A stretch of DNA of 25,157 nt, from NCBI GenBank assembly GCA_964507945.1, contig CAZDRD010000001.1:1-25157 (forward strand), read 5' to 3'. Each line of letters opens with the position of its first letter. Position 1 is the stretch's first letter. This document shows, in pieces, positions 3,507 to 16,435 of the stretch. The position numbers and the translations under genes were made by a program. The notes beneath the pieces are model-generated. The model was given only the letters and a program-made list of their open reading frames with translations. It did no database searches and was not told the origin of the DNA. Source of the stretch: an uncultured Candidatus Saccharibacteria bacterium. Lineage in GTDB: Bacteria; Patescibacteriota; Minisyncoccia; Phycocordibacterales; UBA12088.

Positions 3507-5687
3507 ATGTTATCTTATCGGTCCATTTTTTCGATCTTCATACTTTTTGTGTTATCTCTTGCGGTCGTGATACCGGCGATATCACGTGCTGCTTCCACCT
3601 GTAGTGACAGTTATTCATCATCGGTTGCCGTCCCCACCGGTTACGGTGCCGCATACAACCCCTTTTCTTCGGCAAAGGAACTCTTAGTCAAAACCACATC
3701 CTGTACTGACACCAGTGCCAGTATTACGGTGGGCAATGGCGACACTGCCCTGTATGTGTACAAGGAAGGTTACTACTGGACCGGTAGTGCATGGCAGAAG
3801 ATCAACTTCACGAGCAGTAATGCACTGGATGGTGTGTGGTATAAAGGGCAAGCCAACGCATCGGTACCCATGGCAGCAGGTAACAGTGAGCGCTTTTATG
3901 TGGGCTATACCTGCCAACAGGTCAGCAGTGTCTGGAAGTGTGGCTGCAGCAATACCACCTGTGCCACACCGGCATGGCAGTTGCAGAAGGTAAATAAGAT
4001 CTCGACTGCCGTTGATCCGACGGCAACCTTCAGCGCTAATCCGACTTCGATCACCGCATCGGGCAACTCCACCCTGACCTGGACTTCCACCAATACCACT
4101 GGTTGTACCGGCAATGGCTTTTCCACCGGCGGTAACACCTCAGGTAGCGTCACCGTCTCTCCTACCAACACGACGACCTATACGTTGACGTGTATCAATA
4201 TGGCGCAGAGCGTTACCAAGAGCGTGACCGTCACCGTCGGTTCTTCTGGCCCGGTCTGTGGCAATGGTATCTGTGAGGCTGGTGAGACCACCGCCAGCTG
4301 CTCATCGGACTGCAGGCCTGCGGGCAGTGCGAACATCATCATCAACTACGCGAGTGCGGCGAGTATGGGGACACTTAATCATGTAGCGGCAGGACTTCTG
4401 CATGGGCTTGAGGATGCACTCAGCAACAAGATCTCCCCTGCTTCGCTGTGGACCGACCTTTCTATGAACTTCCTTCGTACACGACCTGGAACAGTCGCGC
4501 GAGTATATACGGAAGACAAGCGCCTACGTGGCGGGTCGACGGATGTCGCTATGGTCATTACTCTCTCAGGCAGCTGGGGATACGCGACCAACCCGAGCGT
4601 CACGCCTCCATGGGGAAACAACTACAACGCTCCCGATTACAGCGCATGGCTTAACTATGTGGTGACGCAGGTCAATCAGATGAAAACCGCTGTTCCCGAC
4701 GCCAACAAACGCATCTATGACCTTTGGAATGAGCCGAACGGGGAATATTGGTGGAAGACACCTGCAAGTGAAGCGTCAACGTATTCACACTTCAAGGAAA
4801 TGTATCGCCTCACCTACAAATTGCTCAAAGAAGGTCTTCCCGGGTACAACGGCGGCGTTGCACTTGACCCGACTGCACGCTTCACTGCACCAGGTACGTC
4901 AGTCGGGCTCAACAACCTCAACGAGACGTTTACGACTGACTTCATGAAATATGCCAAAGACAATAACGTTGTACCTGATCTGTGGAACTGGCACTTTGGC
5001 GATCCGAAGACGCTCGAACGGTTCAATACGTACATGAACTATGCTGCGTCGATCGGTGCCGCACGCGATGCGATGGTACTCGAATACTTGCGCGAGAACG
5101 ATGGCAAGCGCCCCGGCCGTGCAGCGTATGAAATCGCATTGCTTGAGTCAGCGACGCATGCAGGTTCTGGTAAAAAAATCATCGGCGCTACGGATGCAGA
5201 CTGGCCTTCGACTGGCGAGGCAGGAAACGGCTTATTCTACAGCGGCGGTACCTGGCGCAAGCATGGCATATGGTACATCTTTGCCAACTACGCCAAAATG
5301 AGCGGAGCGGAAGCACCTTTTACCAGCGTCACCACATCGCCTAAGATCGGTGCAGTCGCTTCCATCAACTCCAGCAGTCAAAAAGCATGGGCGCTCTTAG
5401 GCAACGACGTCTTCGATCAACGGTGGAGCCCCAGTGACACCGCAACCGTCGGCAATACGACCATCCGCCTTGACGGTATCCGTTCCGCAGATTCAAGTAA
5501 CAAAGTCAATGTGACGGTCAGTCGTATCCCCTACAAAAATTTCGGTGAAGTGAACGACAGCGACATCACGAAGGTGATCAACAACGCGGAGTACACCGTA
5601 ACGGACAATAGTATTTCGGTGGCTATTCCGTGGGGACTAGGCGTGGATGGATATTTCATGGAAGTGAGTAACGTCATCCCCCGTTAG
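3507..5687 (+). CDS. Secreted modular protein: Cys-containing N-terminal domain, Ig/PKD-like repeat, Cys-rich motif, GH39-like (clan GH-A) glycoside hydrolase domain
   Basis: Signal peptide (hydrophobic stretch to ISRA); TATFSANPTSIT..STLTWTS Ig-like unit; CGNGICEAGETTASCSSDC; WNEPN (E409 acid/base) and VLEY (E526 candidate nucleophile); C-terminal beta-sandwich-like region. Confidence 0.7.
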   Translation: MLSYRSIFSIFILFVLSLAVVIPAISRAASTCSDSYSSSVAVPTGYGAAYNPFSSAKELLVKTTSCTDTSASITVGNGDTALYVYKEGYYWTGSAWQKINFTSSNALDGVWYKGQANASVPMAAGNSERFYVGYTCQQVSSVWKCGCSNTTCATPAWQLQKVNKISTAVDPTATFSANPTSITASGNSTLTWTSTNTTGCTGNGFSTGGNTSGSVTVSPTNTTTYTLTCINMAQSVTKSVTVTVGSSGPVCGNGICEAGETTASCSSDCRPAGSANIIINYASAASMGTLNHVAAGLLHGLEDALSNKISPASLWTDLSMNFLRTRPGTVARVYTEDKRLRGGSTDVAMVITLSGSWGYATNPSVTPPWGNNYNAPDYSAWLNYVVTQVNQMKTAVPDANKRIYDLWNEPNGEYWWKTPASEASTYSHFKEMYRLTYKLLKEGLPGYNGGVALDPTARFTAPGTSVGLNNLNETFTTDFMKYAKDNNVVPDLWNWHFGDPKTLERFNTYMNYAASIGAARDAMVLEYLRENDGKRPGRAAYEIALLESATHAGSGKKIIGATDADWPSTGEAGNGLFYSGGTWRKHGIWYIFANYAKMSGAEAPFTSVTTSPKIGAVASINSSSQKAWALLGNDVFDQRWSPSDTATVGNTTIRLDGIRSADSSNKVNVTVSRIPYKNFGEVNDSDITKVINNAEYTVTDNSISVAIPWGLGVDGYFMEVSNVIPR

Positions 5688-5752: not shown

Positions 5753-6199
5753 TTATTTCTTCTCTGCTTTTTTCTCCTGACATTTGGGACAACGGCAGCC
5801 ATATGGCTTTATGTGTTCATCCCAATACTCACGGCCATAATCATACGAAAGCTCTTCACCTTCTTTGATAGCACGTCGCGACAAGATAAATACCCTGCCC
5901 TGGTGAATTTCCGGTTCGCAGTTGGGCCTGCACGAATGATTGATGTACCGCGCGGTATTGGTACGTGCCGTACCGTCTATCGTTTTGCGCGCATTGATCT
6001 CGAAAAGATATTTGCTGCGGCTGGTATGATGTTCCTCTTTGGAAATGACCCGACCGACATACTCGATGATGCACGCTCCTTTGGGTATGGGCTCGCCCGC
6101 AAAGAGTCCCAGGCCCGCGCTTGAACGTTTTACCAAAAGACGATACCCGCCCGGTTCGAATTTCTTTTTTCTTGTTTTTGTTACTGTTTTTTCTTTCAT
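5753..6199 (-). CDS. SET domain protein-lysine N-methyltransferase
   Basis: GLGLFA (motif I), IIEYVG, RYINHSCRPN (motif III), ELSYDYG (motif IV), post-SET CRCPKC. Confidence 0.93.
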   Translation of the reverse strand: MKEKTVTKTRKKKFEPGGYRLLVKRSSAGLGLFAGEPIPKGACIIEYVGRVISKEEHHTSRSKYLFEINARKTIDGTARTNTARYINHSCRPNCEPEIHQGRVFILSRRAIKEGEELSYDYGREYWDEHIKPYGCRCPKCQEKKAEKK

Positions 6200-6254
6200 A
6201 AAAAAATATAGTACCCTACAATGCCTTGCGACACCAGTATGTTATGCTCTAGAG

Positions 6255-6878
6255 ATGTGGGGACTTACCGCAGCAGAACTCCGCGTGTTCAGAAAATTGA
6301 CGACACCGATCAAGATACAAGATTTTCTCGACACATTTCCCATCAATTGGGAGAAGGATGGCGAGACGTATTTTTCGCCGCGAAAGGTGCTGCGGGAACA
6401 AAAGATGCATTGTTTTGAAGGCGCACTTCTTGCCGCCACGGCACTGTGGCTTTCGAACAAGCCGCCGCTTATCCTCGACCTCAAGGCGCCTGGCGACATC
6501 GATCATGTCGTCACGCTTTACAAAATGAACGGCTATTGGGGCGCGATCAGCAAGACCAACCATGCCGTGCTTCGCTTTCGCGATCCGGTATACAAGACCC
6601 TGCGCGAACTTGCCCTCTCATACTTTCATGAGTATTTCGACAATGCGACGGGCAAAAAGATGCTGCGTTCGTATTCGAAACCTCTCAACCTCAAACGGTT
6701 CGGGACGGCATGGATCACTGCCGAAGAAGACTTGGATTTCTTGGCCGAAGCGCTCGATGCATCTACGCATTTTCAAATTTTTCCCAAGGAAAACAGAAGG
6801 TATGTGCGAAAAGCCGACTCGATGGAGCGGCGAGCCGGAGAACTCATCGAATGGCACGAGCGTGATCCACGAACGTAA
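6255..6878 (+). CDS. Vasohibin-like / transglutaminase-fold cysteine protease (putative)
   Basis: 207 aa from ATG 6255 (extended -10 TGtTATGCT 6 nt upstream; the 6039 start overlaps the SET gene); HCFEGALLA (C53), DHVV (H84), WGAISKTN..L..RDPVYKTLRELALSY resemble the vasohibin core recalled from memory. Confidence 0.65.
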   Translation: MWGLTAAELRVFRKLTTPIKIQDFLDTFPINWEKDGETYFSPRKVLREQKMHCFEGALLAATALWLSNKPPLILDLKAPGDIDHVVTLYKMNGYWGAISKTNHAVLRFRDPVYKTLRELALSYFHEYFDNATGKKMLRSYSKPLNLKRFGTAWITAEEDLDFLAEALDASTHFQIFPKENRRYVRKADSMERRAGELIEWHERDPRT

Positions 6879-6930
6879 CATCGTGGTATTGTATCCGATT
6901 TTTTTGTAGAATAGTGGTACGTATCCGCAC

Positions 6931-7836
6931 ATGCGTCCCATATATTTCTTTTATGCGCTTTCGTTTGGTTTGCTGATCGCATTTGCGGGGCTCGGTTTTG
7001 GCGTCTACAAATACCGCGAGCTCGCCGCCGCACACCAGGAACTCGTGACAGCGTACCTCGGCAGTCAAACCACCGCCAACGAACGGTTTGCCGCACTTGA
7101 AGAAAAGGTGGGCATCGCGGTCAATGAAAATCAGGAGTTGTCAGCGAGCCTAGAGGAGCAGAGTAACAAAAACGAAGCGCTTCAGGAAAAATTGCAGGGT
7201 AAGCTTGAGGACATATCCGGCACCGTGGGCGATCTGGAAAAACTCTCGAAGACCGATCCCGAGATCTTGAAAAAATATTCAAAGATCTTTTTCCTCAACG
7301 AACACTACGAGCCGGATCGCCTCGTACAAATTCCCAATGACTATGTTTATAACGACAACCGCGTCGAGCGCATCTCGGCTCCGGTATGGCCATACTTGCA
7401 AAACCTCCTCAAAGCGGCAGAAAAAGACGGCGTCAAGCTCTATGTGAAATCCGCTTTCCGCTCCTTCGAGGAACAGCGCAACACCAAATCATCGTACACG
7501 GTCACGTACGGTGCCGGGACCGCAAATACCTTTTCCGCAGACCAAGGCTACAGCGAACATCAACTGGGCACCGCGGTCGATTTCATCACGACGGGCCTTA
7601 GCGGGCAACTTGATGGCTTCGATACGACGGCAGCATACACATGGCTTCAGGAAAATGCCTATCGATACGGTTTCGTACTTTCCTATCCTCAAGGCAACCA
7701 ATACTATATCTTCGAGCCGTGGCACTGGCGGTTTGTCGGCGATGCACTTGCTCGAGATCTACATCGCAAGAGTCAAAACTTTTACGATATGGATCAGCGC
7801 GATATCGACGCCTATCTTATCAAGGTGTTTGACTGA
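6931..7836 (+). CDS. Membrane-anchored D-Ala-D-Ala carboxypeptidase, VanY/M15B family, with coiled-coil stalk
   Basis: N-terminal TM helix, heptad-rich segment, SAFRS..EQ, SEHQLGTAVD (SxHxxGxAxD zinc motif), EPWHWRFVG. Confidence 0.88.
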   Translation: MRPIYFFYALSFGLLIAFAGLGFGVYKYRELAAAHQELVTAYLGSQTTANERFAALEEKVGIAVNENQELSASLEEQSNKNEALQEKLQGKLEDISGTVGDLEKLSKTDPEILKKYSKIFFLNEHYEPDRLVQIPNDYVYNDNRVERISAPVWPYLQNLLKAAEKDGVKLYVKSAFRSFEEQRNTKSSYTVTYGAGTANTFSADQGYSEHQLGTAVDFITTGLSGQLDGFDTTAAYTWLQENAYRYGFVLSYPQGNQYYIFEPWHWRFVGDALARDLHRKSQNFYDMDQRDIDAYLIKVFD

Positions 7837-12316: not shown

Positions 12317-13485
12317 AAGTGGCATTTTACATGACGACCGTACTGGAAAACGCAGGCGGTATGGAACAATATTTCATAGATACCGCAAAGGAACTTTCCG
12401 CGATGAAAGATACCACCGTCGATATCATCACGCTCGATGACCAGTTTACACTGAGGCTGGAGAAGATGCTCGATATCTATTATTTGAAAAAAGCGTATGT
12501 TAAAAATATTCGCAAACGTGAGGAAGTCCGGGCCGACATACGGTCACAGCTTGGAACTATTCCATACCACAAGATGCCTTCATTCAGAGCGCTTTCGGCA
12601 AAGCTTAAAGAATATGATGTCATTTATGCGAAAAATGAACTTCTTGAAGCTATGATATTTGCAAGCATTTTAAGATACGTGCATATGCCGCCGGTCGTCT
12701 TTTGTTGTGCGACACCGCTTGGTTATCCGCAGCCACAATCCATACGGGAAAAATTACACAACTTTCTTTATCAAGGCCGGATCTATGCATTTCTTACAAA
12801 AGGAGTGACCGCATTCCATGTCAAAAATATGCAGGATGAGCATATTGTCAAAAGAATGTTTCCCAAAAAGCGCGTGACAAAGATCCCAAATGCGATCAAT
12901 ATCCGCACCTTTACGGAACATGCGACAAAATATGTATACCCGTATCAATGGGATTCTCGGAAATTCAATATCGTATGGGTGGGAAGGCTCACGATGCAAA
13001 AAGGTATCGATCGCCTGGTGAACGTCATCAGAATGCTCAACGACGGTATACGGTACGATGAAAAAATCTTTTGGCATATCGCAGGAGACGGCGAAGAAAA
13101 AGAGACTTTGAAGAAAGAAACAAGGGACTGGAAAAATGTACATCTTCACGGTCATATACCCCATGAACAGATGCCAAGCGTCTATCGTCATTGCGATCTC
13201 TTGCTTTCAACCAGCAGATGGGAATCATTCGGCTTGACGCTCATCGAAGCGAATGCATCGGGCATACCTGCGGTTGCCTACGACATACCCGGACCCAACG
13301 AGATAATCGTGAACGGCCAAAACGGTTTTCTGATCACGAACGAACGAGAGATGGCGGATACGATACGATCGCTCATAGATCATGAGCGATATTGTTCCGA
13401 TCCGACAGAGGTCGTACGGAAGAAATTCAGTTCAGAACAGCATAGCGTGCACTTGTACGACCTTCTCAAGTATGCGGCGGGATGA
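12313..13485 (+). CDS. GT4 family glycosyltransferase
   Basis: AGGMEQY, VGRLTMQKG, ESFGLTLIEA (EX7E); ATGA overlap with upstream GT2. Confidence 0.87.
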   Translation: MKVAFYMTTVLENAGGMEQYFIDTAKELSAMKDTTVDIITLDDQFTLRLEKMLDIYYLKKAYVKNIRKREEVRADIRSQLGTIPYHKMPSFRALSAKLKEYDVIYAKNELLEAMIFASILRYVHMPPVVFCCATPLGYPQPQSIREKLHNFLYQGRIYAFLTKGVTAFHVKNMQDEHIVKRMFPKKRVTKIPNAINIRTFTEHATKYVYPYQWDSRKFNIVWVGRLTMQKGIDRLVNVIRMLNDGIRYDEKIFWHIAGDGEEKETLKKETRDWKNVHLHGHIPHEQMPSVYRHCDLLLSTSRWESFGLTLIEANASGIPAVAYDIPGPNEIIVNGQNGFLITNEREMADTIRSLIDHERYCSDPTEVVRKKFSSEQHSVHLYDLLKYAAG

Positions 13486-16435
13486 AAAAATATATCTGGC
13501 TCTATTGCTTGCGATCGTATTGACGACCTACCATCAATGGTTGTTCACGTTCTCGATCATCACCAAAGGCGACTGGCCGTACCTTTTTGTTGAGACGTTG
13601 AAAAGTCTTCGTGCGGATTATTTTTCGCTCTGGCTTTCCGACTTTAACTTTGGAAGAATCCTTCTGGATGTCGGGCAGGCGCCCACCTATGCAGGCGCTG
13701 GCATGCTTGCAAAATATTTCGGATTGCCATGGGAAGCGATCGAGCGGATCGTATATTTCTTTCCCGCGATCATCATGGGGGTGTTCGGTTCATATATACT
13801 GATTCGCAATATATTCAAAAGCGCCTCCGTCGCGTTTATCGGCGCTATCGTTTTTTCCTTCAATACCTACATCCTCACGCTCCAGACCGGACACATGACC
13901 TTGGGGGTGGCATTTGCCTTGTGTCCGATTTTATTTCTTCTCTTCAATCGCGCATTGAAACGAGGGTCGCTCACCGATACGATTTTGACGAGTCTGGTAT
14001 TTTTTGTGGTCTGCGCATACGAACCACGAGCGGCGTATGTGATCGCGATGGCGCTTGGCCTGTATGCCCTCTGGTGCCTTCTTCTGTATCGTACCCAAGG
14101 CGGTATGCAGATCATATACGTCTGCATGATTTTCGGAGTCATTTCTATGTTGCTCAATGCATACTGGCTTTTGGGGTTGTTGCACATTACCGACCTCACG
14201 CAACAGGACCTCCTCACGAGGACCTTGTGGGGTGGACAATATTACGATTTCTTAAGCGCTGCGACGCTTTTTCATCCGTGGTGGACGGGATCTGAAATCG
14301 CGATCTTCATAAAGCAATCGGTGCCGATATATTTCCTTTTCATACCTCTGTTTGCCGGTGCCGGACTATGGTTCGAGAGGCGCCGTCCGGTAGTGATTTT
14401 TTTCGGAATACTCGCGTTTGTAGGCATATTCCTTGCCAAGCAAGAAGGAACGCCGCTTCCTGGTCTTTATCCTTGGCTTTTTGCTCATGTGCCCGGTTTT
14501 AGCGCATTTCGAGAAGCAAGCAAGTTCTATTTTCTCATTGCACTGTCGTATTCCGTACTTATCGCTTCGTTTGCAAACTGGATTTGGAGGGGAGATGCGA
14601 TGATATATCTGACAAAATATACGAGAGTGGCGCTCTTGGGATGTATCGCGTTTATCTTTTTGGTCAATACCAGACCATTCATCACGGGAGACATACAATC
14701 GCTTTTCGTGCCACGAACGATACCGCAGGAGTATCTTACGTTTCGGGAAAAAATGCTCGTCGAAAACGATCGCTTCAACGTTTTATGGATGCCCATTTCT
14801 TCGCGTTGGGGTATATACACCGATACGCATCCGAAGATCGACGCGGTGACCGTTTCCGAAAATGCTTGGAAGCCATTTGTTGACGAGACGATACCTTCGA
14901 ATGAACAGCAGTATCGAATCATCAGCACGCTCCAGCATAATTTTTCGCACTTCTTACTTACGTCGTCTAATGTAAAATATGTCGTGGTTCCTCTCCAAGA
15001 TACGGCAAATGATGATGATTTCTTTATCGACTATGGTGGGCGGACGGATCCGAACATACGACAGTGGTATATCAATGCACTTGATAGCCTTCCCTATCTC
15101 ACGCGTGTAGACATAGGCACGAAGGAACTGGCCATCTATGAAAACGCATATTATAAGCCATATGTCCATGCATTCACGACACTCAGTACATTTCCCAATT
15201 TCGACCGTTTGGAAGAGCGATATGATTTTGTGACGAAAAATCTCGGTAAGGAATTTTATTTCATCGCGACCGATACGTCGCCGGTATACGCCGGAGAGGT
15301 TCGTGAAGTATTTTTTGACGTTAATGCACATCATATCCAAAATGGTGCGATCGTATCGTCCCCTCTTGATTCCACGCCCTATACCCTGTATACCCCAAAC
15401 ACCACGATGGTAGAAAAAATATCGGATGGCACGACGACCAGATACACGAGAAGCAATACGTCGACAAACGTCGTACGCAATGCTTCTTTCGAAGAAGGCG
15501 CCTGGACCGACAGGGTCGGAGATTGCAATGCATACGATGATTATCCACAGCTTGCTATGCGTCTTGTCTCCGATGCATACGCGGGAGATCGCGCTCTTGA
15601 GCTTGAAGCGACACGGCATGTCGCCTGCACCAATCAAAAGATACCGCTTGCCGGCGGCCAGACGTACCTGCTGACTTTTGCCTACCAAGGGAGACCCGCA
15701 CAACAAGCAGGATACTACCTGGGTTTCTTTAGCGACGAACATGCGACCAGCGCGTCCGAAATTATTAACGAACAAATTCCGATCAAAACCAATGATGAGA
15801 TGTGGCATGAATTCAAAAAAATCATACACGTGCCCAATGATACGATCGGGGCGTATCTGTATGTATACGCTTATGCCACCGACAACAAAAGCGTGAATCG
15901 GGTACGTTACGACACGATAGCGATGACGCGACTACCGAAAGATCTTTTCGACTATTGGCTTGTCAACGCGACGACGACTTCCCTCACCGTACCGCAGAGC
16001 ATTGCTTTTGAAACGGTACATCCTACAAAAAAATTGGTACATGTTAAAGGCGCGTCGACACCTTTTTATCTTGCGATGAGCGAAAGCTACCATCCACAGT
16101 GGCAGCTGGAGTTCGATAACGAGCACGTGCGCGGTTTTTTCAAAACATGGGTCCCATGGATAAGCCCGGACCGTATTCCTGACGATGATCATTTCAAGCT
16201 CAATGGTTTTCTCAACGGTTGGTATATCGATACGCAGACGTATTGTGTAAAACAAACACTTTGTACCCGCAATCCAGACGGCACCTATGATATGGATCTT
16301 GTTATTGAATTCTTCCCGCAGCGGTGGTTCTATGTCGGACTCGTTATCTCGGTGGTTACGTTCATCGGCTGCATCATGTATCTGATGTATGATTTCATAA
16401 GGCGCGACAGGCGTCGTGCGGCATCAAAAAAATAA
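13472..16435 (+). CDS. GT-C fold membrane glycosyltransferase (AftD/YfhO-like) with extracytoplasmic CBM-like domain
   Basis: 987 aa from ATG 13472; about 11-12 N-terminal TM helices, GDW in first loop, FSFNTY, FREASKF, CBM4/9-like NASFEEG segment, LNGFLNGW, C-terminal TM helix. Confidence 0.7.
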   Translation: MRRDEKIYLALLLAIVLTTYHQWLFTFSIITKGDWPYLFVETLKSLRADYFSLWLSDFNFGRILLDVGQAPTYAGAGMLAKYFGLPWEAIERIVYFFPAIIMGVFGSYILIRNIFKSASVAFIGAIVFSFNTYILTLQTGHMTLGVAFALCPILFLLFNRALKRGSLTDTILTSLVFFVVCAYEPRAAYVIAMALGLYALWCLLLYRTQGGMQIIYVCMIFGVISMLLNAYWLLGLLHITDLTQQDLLTRTLWGGQYYDFLSAATLFHPWWTGSEIAIFIKQSVPIYFLFIPLFAGAGLWFERRRPVVIFFGILAFVGIFLAKQEGTPLPGLYPWLFAHVPGFSAFREASKFYFLIALSYSVLIASFANWIWRGDAMIYLTKYTRVALLGCIAFIFLVNTRPFITGDIQSLFVPRTIPQEYLTFREKMLVENDRFNVLWMPISSRWGIYTDTHPKIDAVTVSENAWKPFVDETIPSNEQQYRIISTLQHNFSHFLLTSSNVKYVVVPLQDTANDDDFFIDYGGRTDPNIRQWYINALDSLPYLTRVDIGTKELAIYENAYYKPYVHAFTTLSTFPNFDRLEERYDFVTKNLGKEFYFIATDTSPVYAGEVREVFFDVNAHHIQNGAIVSSPLDSTPYTLYTPNTTMVEKISDGTTTRYTRSNTSTNVVRNASFEEGAWTDRVGDCNAYDDYPQLAMRLVSDAYAGDRALELEATRHVACTNQKIPLAGGQTYLLTFAYQGRPAQQAGYYLGFFSDEHATSASEIINEQIPIKTNDEMWHEFKKIIHVPNDTIGAYLYVYAYATDNKSVNRVRYDTIAMTRLPKDLFDYWLVNATTTSLTVPQSIAFETVHPTKKLVHVKGASTPFYLAMSESYHPQWQLEFDNEHVRGFFKTWVPWISPDRIPDDDHFKLNGFLNGWYIDTQTYCVKQTLCTRNPDGTYDMDLVIEFFPQRWFYVGLVISVVTFIGCIMYLMYDFIRRDRRRAASKK

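Follow-up and report, generated by a model that had tools for sequence, protein, structure and literature searches.

The window, the whole stretch of 25,157 nucleotides from an uncultured Candidatus Saccharibacteria bacterium analysed here, contains at positions 6255–6878 of the forward strand one open frame of 207 codons and a stop codon. The translated protein carries the motif HCFEGALLA, which includes C53, and a second segment, H84-VVTLYKMNGYWGAISKTNHAVLRFRDPVYKTLRELALSY. The ATG at 6255 is supported as the start codon because Met1 is near-invariant in the homologue alignment. A longer frame from a TTG at 6039 is not supported, given this conservation of Met1, and it overlaps the SET gene on the opposite strand. 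Two antisense open reading frames (ORFs), 6249–6563 (−) of 104 amino acids and 6618–6941 (−) of 107 amino acids, are seemingly conserved in 18 loci and were discarded as shadows of the conserved sense frame. No signal peptide or transmembrane segment is visible in the 207-residue sequence, and the protein is cytoplasmic. The gene is present in a single copy in the host assembly (678 kb, 120 contigs, 79% complete), which belongs to the phylum Patescibacteria of the candidate phyla radiation (CPR). The GC content is flat at about 0.50 over the region, so a recent transfer judged by base composition was rejected. The gaps on both sides are short: 55 bp separate the gene from the SET gene upstream, and 52 bp from a VanY-like gene downstream. 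No small partner ORF fits into either gap, which agrees with the original prediction of a stand-alone protein. The gene and its key codons are given below, with conservation counted in 234 full-length homologues (119 close homologues and 115 representatives of 50% clusters).

6255–6878 (+): CPR-C4-family gene, 207-residue vasohibin-like cysteine protease of the transglutaminase fold (translation and homology)
6411–6413 (+): Cys53 codon, predicted nucleophile at the N-terminus of helix 53–66, equivalent to CPR-C4 C61 and VASH1 C169; Cys in 232 of 234 homologues
6477–6479 (+): Asp75 codon, putative Zn2+ ligand by homology, aligned to CPR-C4 D83
6501–6503 (+): Asp83 codon, putative Zn2+ ligand by homology, aligned to CPR-C4 D92
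6504–6506 (+): His84 codon, predicted general base and first residue of strand 84–91, equivalent to CPR-C4 H93 and VASH1 H204; His in 232 of 234 homologues
6570–6572 (+): Leu106 codon, predicted third triad member through its backbone carbonyl, equivalent to CPR-C4 L115 and VASH1 L226; Leu in 208 of 234 homologues, otherwise mostly Val, Ile or Cys
6756–6758 (+): Asp168 codon, putative Zn2+ ligand by homology, aligned to CPR-C4 D182

The window protein belongs to the CPR-C4 family. A phmmer search of the PDB retrieves CPR-C4 (7OB6, 7OB7 and 7PJO) with an expect value (E) of 1.8e-59, and the match is full-length (residues 4–204 of the query against 23–230 of the chain) at 51–52% identity. An AlphaFold2 model was built from alignment A1, which comprises 47 homologues with 35–72% identity to the window protein and also served for the family hidden Markov model (HMM). 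The model has a mean predicted local distance difference test score (pLDDT) of 95.8 and a predicted template-modelling score (pTM) of 0.92. The two proteins share one fold; the CPR-C4 entries occupy ranks 1–5 of a Foldseek search against the PDB, with template-modelling (TM) scores of 0.90–0.92, a root-mean-square deviation (rmsd) of 1.2–1.5 Å and 51% identity; over all comparisons the model superposes on CPR-C4 at 1.1–1.5 Å. They are also alike in size, in CPR origin and in the lack of a partner protein. The predicted catalytic pair C53 and H84, which had been proposed from the sequence alone, maps together with L106 onto the crystallographic triad C61/H93/L115 of CPR-C4, and a nearby serine is shared as well (S108 in CPR-C4, S99 here). 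The tri-aspartate zinc site D83/D92/D182 has its probable counterpart in the aligned D75/D83/D168. Compared with CPR-C4, the window protein lacks two short insertions, one of 4 residues after F128 and one of 1–2 residues elsewhere. The origins also differ: CPR-C4 comes from an Adlerbacteria-like contig of an Icelandic hot spring at 75 °C, whereas the window gene lies in a CPR genome with about 50% GC. ABC-transporter genes flank CPR-C4, whereas SET and VanY genes flank the window gene.

CPR-C4 itself was formerly a hypothetical protein encoded on a CPR contig from a hot spring, and its structure was solved as a homodimer in three crystal forms (Cornish et al., J Biol Chem 2022, PMC9108980). 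Its triad is non-canonical and consists of Cys61, His93 and the backbone carbonyl of Leu115. A tri-aspartate Zn2+ site (Asp83/Asp92/Asp182) increases thermal stability, with a melting temperature about 30 °C higher, and is not universal across the family. CPR-C4 has neither an SVBP-like partner nor the SVBP-binding helices, and the charge of its pocket is unlike that of vasohibins. It is remotely homologous in structure to human VASH1/2, and the title of the paper states this vasohibin homology. The family corresponds to the 3DM subfamily CP01A (PMC9108980). The window gene is thus an ordinary CPR-C4 orthologue and is not new, since the family, its structure and its vasohibin likeness were published in 2022. 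The original prediction had placed the novelty in function and context; this was overstated, because an activity assay and three crystal structures are already available for the family, a paper names the vasohibin homology in its title, and the family's independence of SVBP has been described too (PMC9108980).

The predicted active site is strongly conserved. In the model, Cys53 starts helix 53–66, His84 starts strand 84–91 and Leu106 lies just before strand 109–113; this predicted layout is the classical arrangement of papain and transglutaminases. Beyond the triad, Gly96, Arg109, Glu118 and Tyr127 are near-invariant among the 234 homologues. Asp75, Asp83 and Asp168 are Asp in 116–119 of the 119 close homologues, and their conservation is weaker in distant ones. 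Conservation is also strong over the whole sequence, with close CPR relatives 64–82% identical and DPANN-labelled copies about 50% identical.

The relation to vasohibins is borne out by both structure and profile. Directly after CPR-C4, ranks 6–28 of the Foldseek search contain only VASH1 and VASH2 entries (E 1.5e-6 to 4.8e-5), and PNGase, LapG and others first appear at E of about 6e-3. An exhaustive aligner, independent of Foldseek and run over 48,161 chains, gives scores of 30.4 for CPR-C4, 12.4 for VASH2 (6J4S, 158 residues aligned), 11.2 for VASH1 (6WSL), 8.5 for LapG and at most 7.4 for all others. Vasohibins thus stand well above other transglutaminase-like folds, and a best match to an unrelated family without any vasohibin, named beforehand as the outcome that would speak against the proposal, was not obtained. 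LapG/BTLCP (PDB 4FGO), a periplasmic, calcium-dependent protein with a Cys-His-Asp triad and 12% identity, is plainly more remote than the vasohibins are.

Sequence comparison of the single protein does not reach this far. In phmmer against the PDB, VASH1 is not listed at E≤10, and a pairwise comparison by itself yields no significant similarity; likewise, sequence alone was deemed unable to detect the link between CPR-C4 and vasohibins (PMC9108980). The HMM built from A1 matches 14 distinct VASH1 constructs in the PDB at E 1.3e-4 to 1.2e-3 and VASH2 at E 0.04–0.3, with no other unrelated match below E 0.4. In this alignment (E 1.3e-4), C53, H84 and L106 are in register with the VASH1 triad of Cys169, His204 and the Leu226 carbonyl, as defined in PMC6937246. 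The VASH1 strings given in the original prediction (KCLEAVILG and HIVLGVNFAGRYGALGMSRREDLMYKPPAFRTLSELVLDF) match the PDB chains letter for letter. Its gapless alignment of 40 residues from H84 holds as well, with 12 identities counted by eye (H84, V86, G93, G96, A97, L106, P111, T115, L116, E118, L119 and L121). The Pfam model Vasohibin (PF14822) gives sub-threshold matches in 16 of the 47 A1 members (best E 7e-4), and its gathering score is not reached by the window protein. DUF553 (PF04473) and Transglut_core (PF01841) likewise match 20 and 10 of the 47 members below threshold. No A1 member is significant for these two models at curated thresholds and the window protein has no match; the sub-threshold matches place the family in the transglutaminase-like superfamily.

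The likeness is restricted to the catalytic core, which has the vasohibin-type fold. Identity to human VASH1 and VASH2, the tubulinyl-Tyr carboxypeptidases, is only about 14–16%, and the structural alignment from the exhaustive aligner spans only VASH1 108–288 and VASH2 97–278. The N-terminal SVBP-binding helices (VASH1 W74, W78, V81, I95 and L101) have no counterpart in the window protein, because the alignments begin at VASH1 108 and VASH2 97. Nor does the window protein have an SVBP-like gene beside it. CPR-C4 is also, unlike the vasohibins, a homodimer with a zinc site, and the substrate cannot be tubulin. The window protein is therefore vasohibin-like in its catalytic chemistry, yet it stands outside the vasohibin family proper.

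We are highly confident of CPR-C4 family membership together with a thiol-hydrolase chemistry through Cys53, His84 and the Leu106 carbonyl. In the mechanism that we propose, the window protein would be a cysteine hydrolase of small size, located in the cytoplasm and built on the vasohibin variant of the transglutaminase/papain-like fold; by homology it is probably a homodimer. Cys53, at the N-terminus of its helix, would act as the nucleophile, and His84 on the adjacent strand would activate it. His84 would be oriented not by an Asp side chain but by Leu106 through its backbone carbonyl, a role described for the equivalent leucines of CPR-C4 (PMC9108980) and VASH1 (PMC6937246). The active site may be shaped in part by Tyr127 and by the invariant hydroxyl of residue 101, and Asp75, Asp83 and Asp168 would bind a structural Zn2+. 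No SVBP-like chaperone would be needed, and the enzyme would cut peptide bonds in a cellular substrate other than tubulin. The present analysis establishes family membership, the fold, and the conservation and register of the triad. The 51%-identical CPR-C4 has been shown to dimerise, to bind zinc, to have this triad geometry and to cleave casein (PMC9108980). The activity of the window protein, the catalytic role of its triad and what it cuts are inferred.

Several points weigh against this proposal. Pfam and NCBIfam scans of the window protein return no match even at E≤10. The closeness of C53 and H84 is deduced from the superposition of the predicted model on the crystal structure at 1.1–1.5 Å. 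The heterogeneous gene neighbourhoods give no clue to a substrate. Proteolysis by the CPR-C4 active site is not rigorously proven, because the only published assay is a generic one in which BODIPY-casein is cleaved, with neither a mutant nor an inhibitor; the words C61A, mutagenesis and E-64 are absent from PMC9108980, which describes no active-site mutant or cysteine-protease inhibitor control. Proteolysis as the physiological reaction is consequently a weaker claim than family membership and thiol-hydrolase chemistry.

Among characterised proteins, the vasohibins are nearest in fold and have the same unusual Cys-His-Leu triad, and the hydroxyl equivalent to VASH1 S221, which is needed for detyrosination (PMC6937246), is Ser or Thr in 233 of 234 members. 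These features would fit a genuine carboxypeptidase of the vasohibin type, one that trims an aromatic residue from the C-terminus of a particular bacterial protein. However, detyrosination requires K168, R222 and R223, the basic residues with which VASH1 binds the acidic tail of tubulin (PMC6937246), and in their place the window protein has the conserved H52, N102 and H103 (His in 205 and Asn in 208 of 234 homologues at positions 52 and 102; His, Phe or Tyr at 103). Only 5 of 15 VASH ligand-contact residues are conserved (PMC9108980), the dequenching of BODIPY-casein implies internal cleavage, and bacteria lack alpha-tubulin. A carboxypeptidase of this type is unlikely, and the C-terminal-processing activity of the original prediction found no support, the sole published assay being on labelled casein. 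Another thiol chemistry of the transglutaminase fold, such as that of an isopeptidase, amidase or deamidase or an acyl transfer, could be the reaction in the cell in place of proteolysis and would make casein cleavage a weak side activity or the work of a contaminant. We consider it improbable.

Our preferred reading, a CPR-C4-type cysteine protease, does not involve the gene on the other side of the upstream spacer. The features at this side of the gene, and the loci in which the same pair is found, are the following.

5753–6199 (−): SET-domain protein methyltransferase of 148 amino acids, divergent from the protease gene (Pfam SET, E 2.6e-24)
6200–6254 (no strand): divergent intergenic region of 55 bp between the SET gene and the protease gene
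SET/CPR-C4 pair in the window: 5753–6199 (−) with 6255–6878 (+)
SET/CPR-C4 pair in L001: 5528–5929
SET/CPR-C4 pair in L002: 5418–6113
SET/CPR-C4 pair in L005: 684–1109
SET/CPR-C4 pair in L058: 6673–7098
SET/CPR-C4 pair in L074: 1719–2159
SET/CPR-C4 pair on the P0008 contig

The spacer contains TGTTATGCT, an extended −10-like element at 6240–6248 (+), 6 nt before the protease ATG. On the minus strand, TATATT forms a −10-like element for the SET gene, and both elements lie 6–7 nt from their ATGs. No obvious Shine-Dalgarno sequence is found in the 6200–6254 spacer. Given this short distance to the start codon and the absence of a clear ribosome-binding motif, leaderless transcription is possible, and both divergent genes may be transcribed as leaderless mRNAs. 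A consensus scan of the spacer yields one weak sigma-70-like site (6195–6222), which is no more than in shuffled sequences.

The divergent pair, with its minimal SET-domain methyltransferase, is present in seven loci whose remaining flanks are unrelated, and in a 400-genome sample (G001–G400) SET is found in 14 of 33 CPR-C4-positive genomes versus 61 of 367 negative ones. These observations would suit a two-enzyme protein-modification module in which the SET methyltransferase and the protease act on one shared substrate. However, all seven pairs fall within one 16-row subclade, compatible with a single origin, and the roughly 2.5-fold enrichment is overstated, because genomes that are related do not count as independent cases. 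In the unbiased genome sample the pair is adjacent only in G324; in two genomes of the same genus the genes are about 6 kb apart. No SET match is present in 19 of the 33 positive genomes, including close relatives in family f35 at 60–70% identity. Such a module is distinctly unlikely. The SET neighbour is a possible functional partner, unproven, and we treat the pairing as a lineage-specific lead outside the mechanism, since 19 positive genomes lack SET and only G324 has it adjacent. It is very unlikely, too, that within the window's subclade of Paceibacteria-like CPR bacteria the pair forms a co-regulated module coupling SET lysine methylation and proteolytic trimming of one shared substrate, for example a nucleoid or host-facing protein. 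If true, a SET-protease module would be a prokaryotic pairing of enzyme types whose other known settings are the regulation of chromatin and of the cytoskeleton in eukaryotes. PADLOC gave no defence-system match for the window protein or its SET neighbour.

Downstream of the protease gene lies a gene for a membrane-anchored VanY-type D,D-carboxypeptidase, followed by a polysaccharide/glycosyltransferase cluster. A wider survey, based on ORFs clustered from 44 loci and on three contig look-ups, found no universal neighbour of CPR-C4-family genes; this agrees with the report that gene position gives no function for CPR-C4 (PMC9108980). Neighbours are instead lineage-specific. Family f35 has an ArfB-like RF-1, a GIY-YIG protein and a PIF1 helicase, and Saccharibacteria and Doudnabacteria have an AI-2E transporter and a Gmad2-like protein. 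In two loci of the latter group (L008 4383–6603 and L013 2608–4851), an AI-2E-family transporter, a Gmad2-like membrane-anchored protein and, last, the protease form a tight run on the same strand. The AI-2E transporter gene abuts the protease gene in L058 (4917–6627); on the P0008 contig, about 2.6 kb separate the two. Elsewhere in the window, 765–1271 (−) encodes a stand-alone papain-like peptidase of 168 amino acids (Peptidase_C39_2, E 2.8e-15; also C70/AvrRpt2-like), which adjoins a TspO/MBR gene at 1264–1788. Two long ORFs, 3507–5687 (+) of 726 amino acids and 13382–16435 (+) of 1017 amino acids, have no Pfam match at E≤0.01. The latter lies within the glycosyltransferase cluster, beside a DUF6541-like membrane protein of 553 amino acids.

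The CPR-C4 family is large and patchily distributed. A search limited to 8,000 candidates gave more than 7,431 family clusters at the 90% identity level, and 1,288 representatives of 50% clusters are found at E≤1e-3. In a sample drawn evenly over the phylum, with the window protein as query at E≤1e-5, 33 of 338 high-quality genomes (about 10%) are positive. Copies also occur in metagenome-assembled genomes (MAGs) labelled as DPANN archaea, Proteobacteria and others, and archaeal and algal homologues were mentioned earlier (PMC9108980). The gene tree conflicts with taxonomy, as seen in the genome sample G001–G400 and in L009, L012 and L015–L017. Copies from the same order are 47–54% identical to that of the window, whereas relatives that share only the phylum (family f35) reach 60–70%. 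The archaeal-labelled copies from DPANN MAGs nest among CPR copies. This pattern suggests horizontal exchange of the protease gene, to which mis-binned MAG contigs could contribute. In three longer relatives of 563–832 amino acids (P0176, P0179 and P0261), a CPR-C4-like domain is fused to zf-MYND and fibronectin-III (fn3) domains, and two of the three match Pfam Vasohibin just below threshold (18.5–19.9 bits against a cut-off of 24); for fused relatives as a group the scores are 18.5–20.5 bits. These fused proteins may form a bridge in sequence from the prokaryotic family to the vasohibins, and the zf-MYND domain suggests, from domain content, a eukaryotic origin.

Among the best 120 database clusters, all that bear a name are called 'hypothetical protein', and four years after the structure paper neither NCBIfam nor Pfam has a model for the family. 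A family model in Pfam/NCBIfam would mend this widespread annotation gap in CPR and DPANN genomes. For the family as a whole, the profile match to VASH1 at E of about 1e-4 slightly strengthens the case for a common ancestry with the vasohibins.
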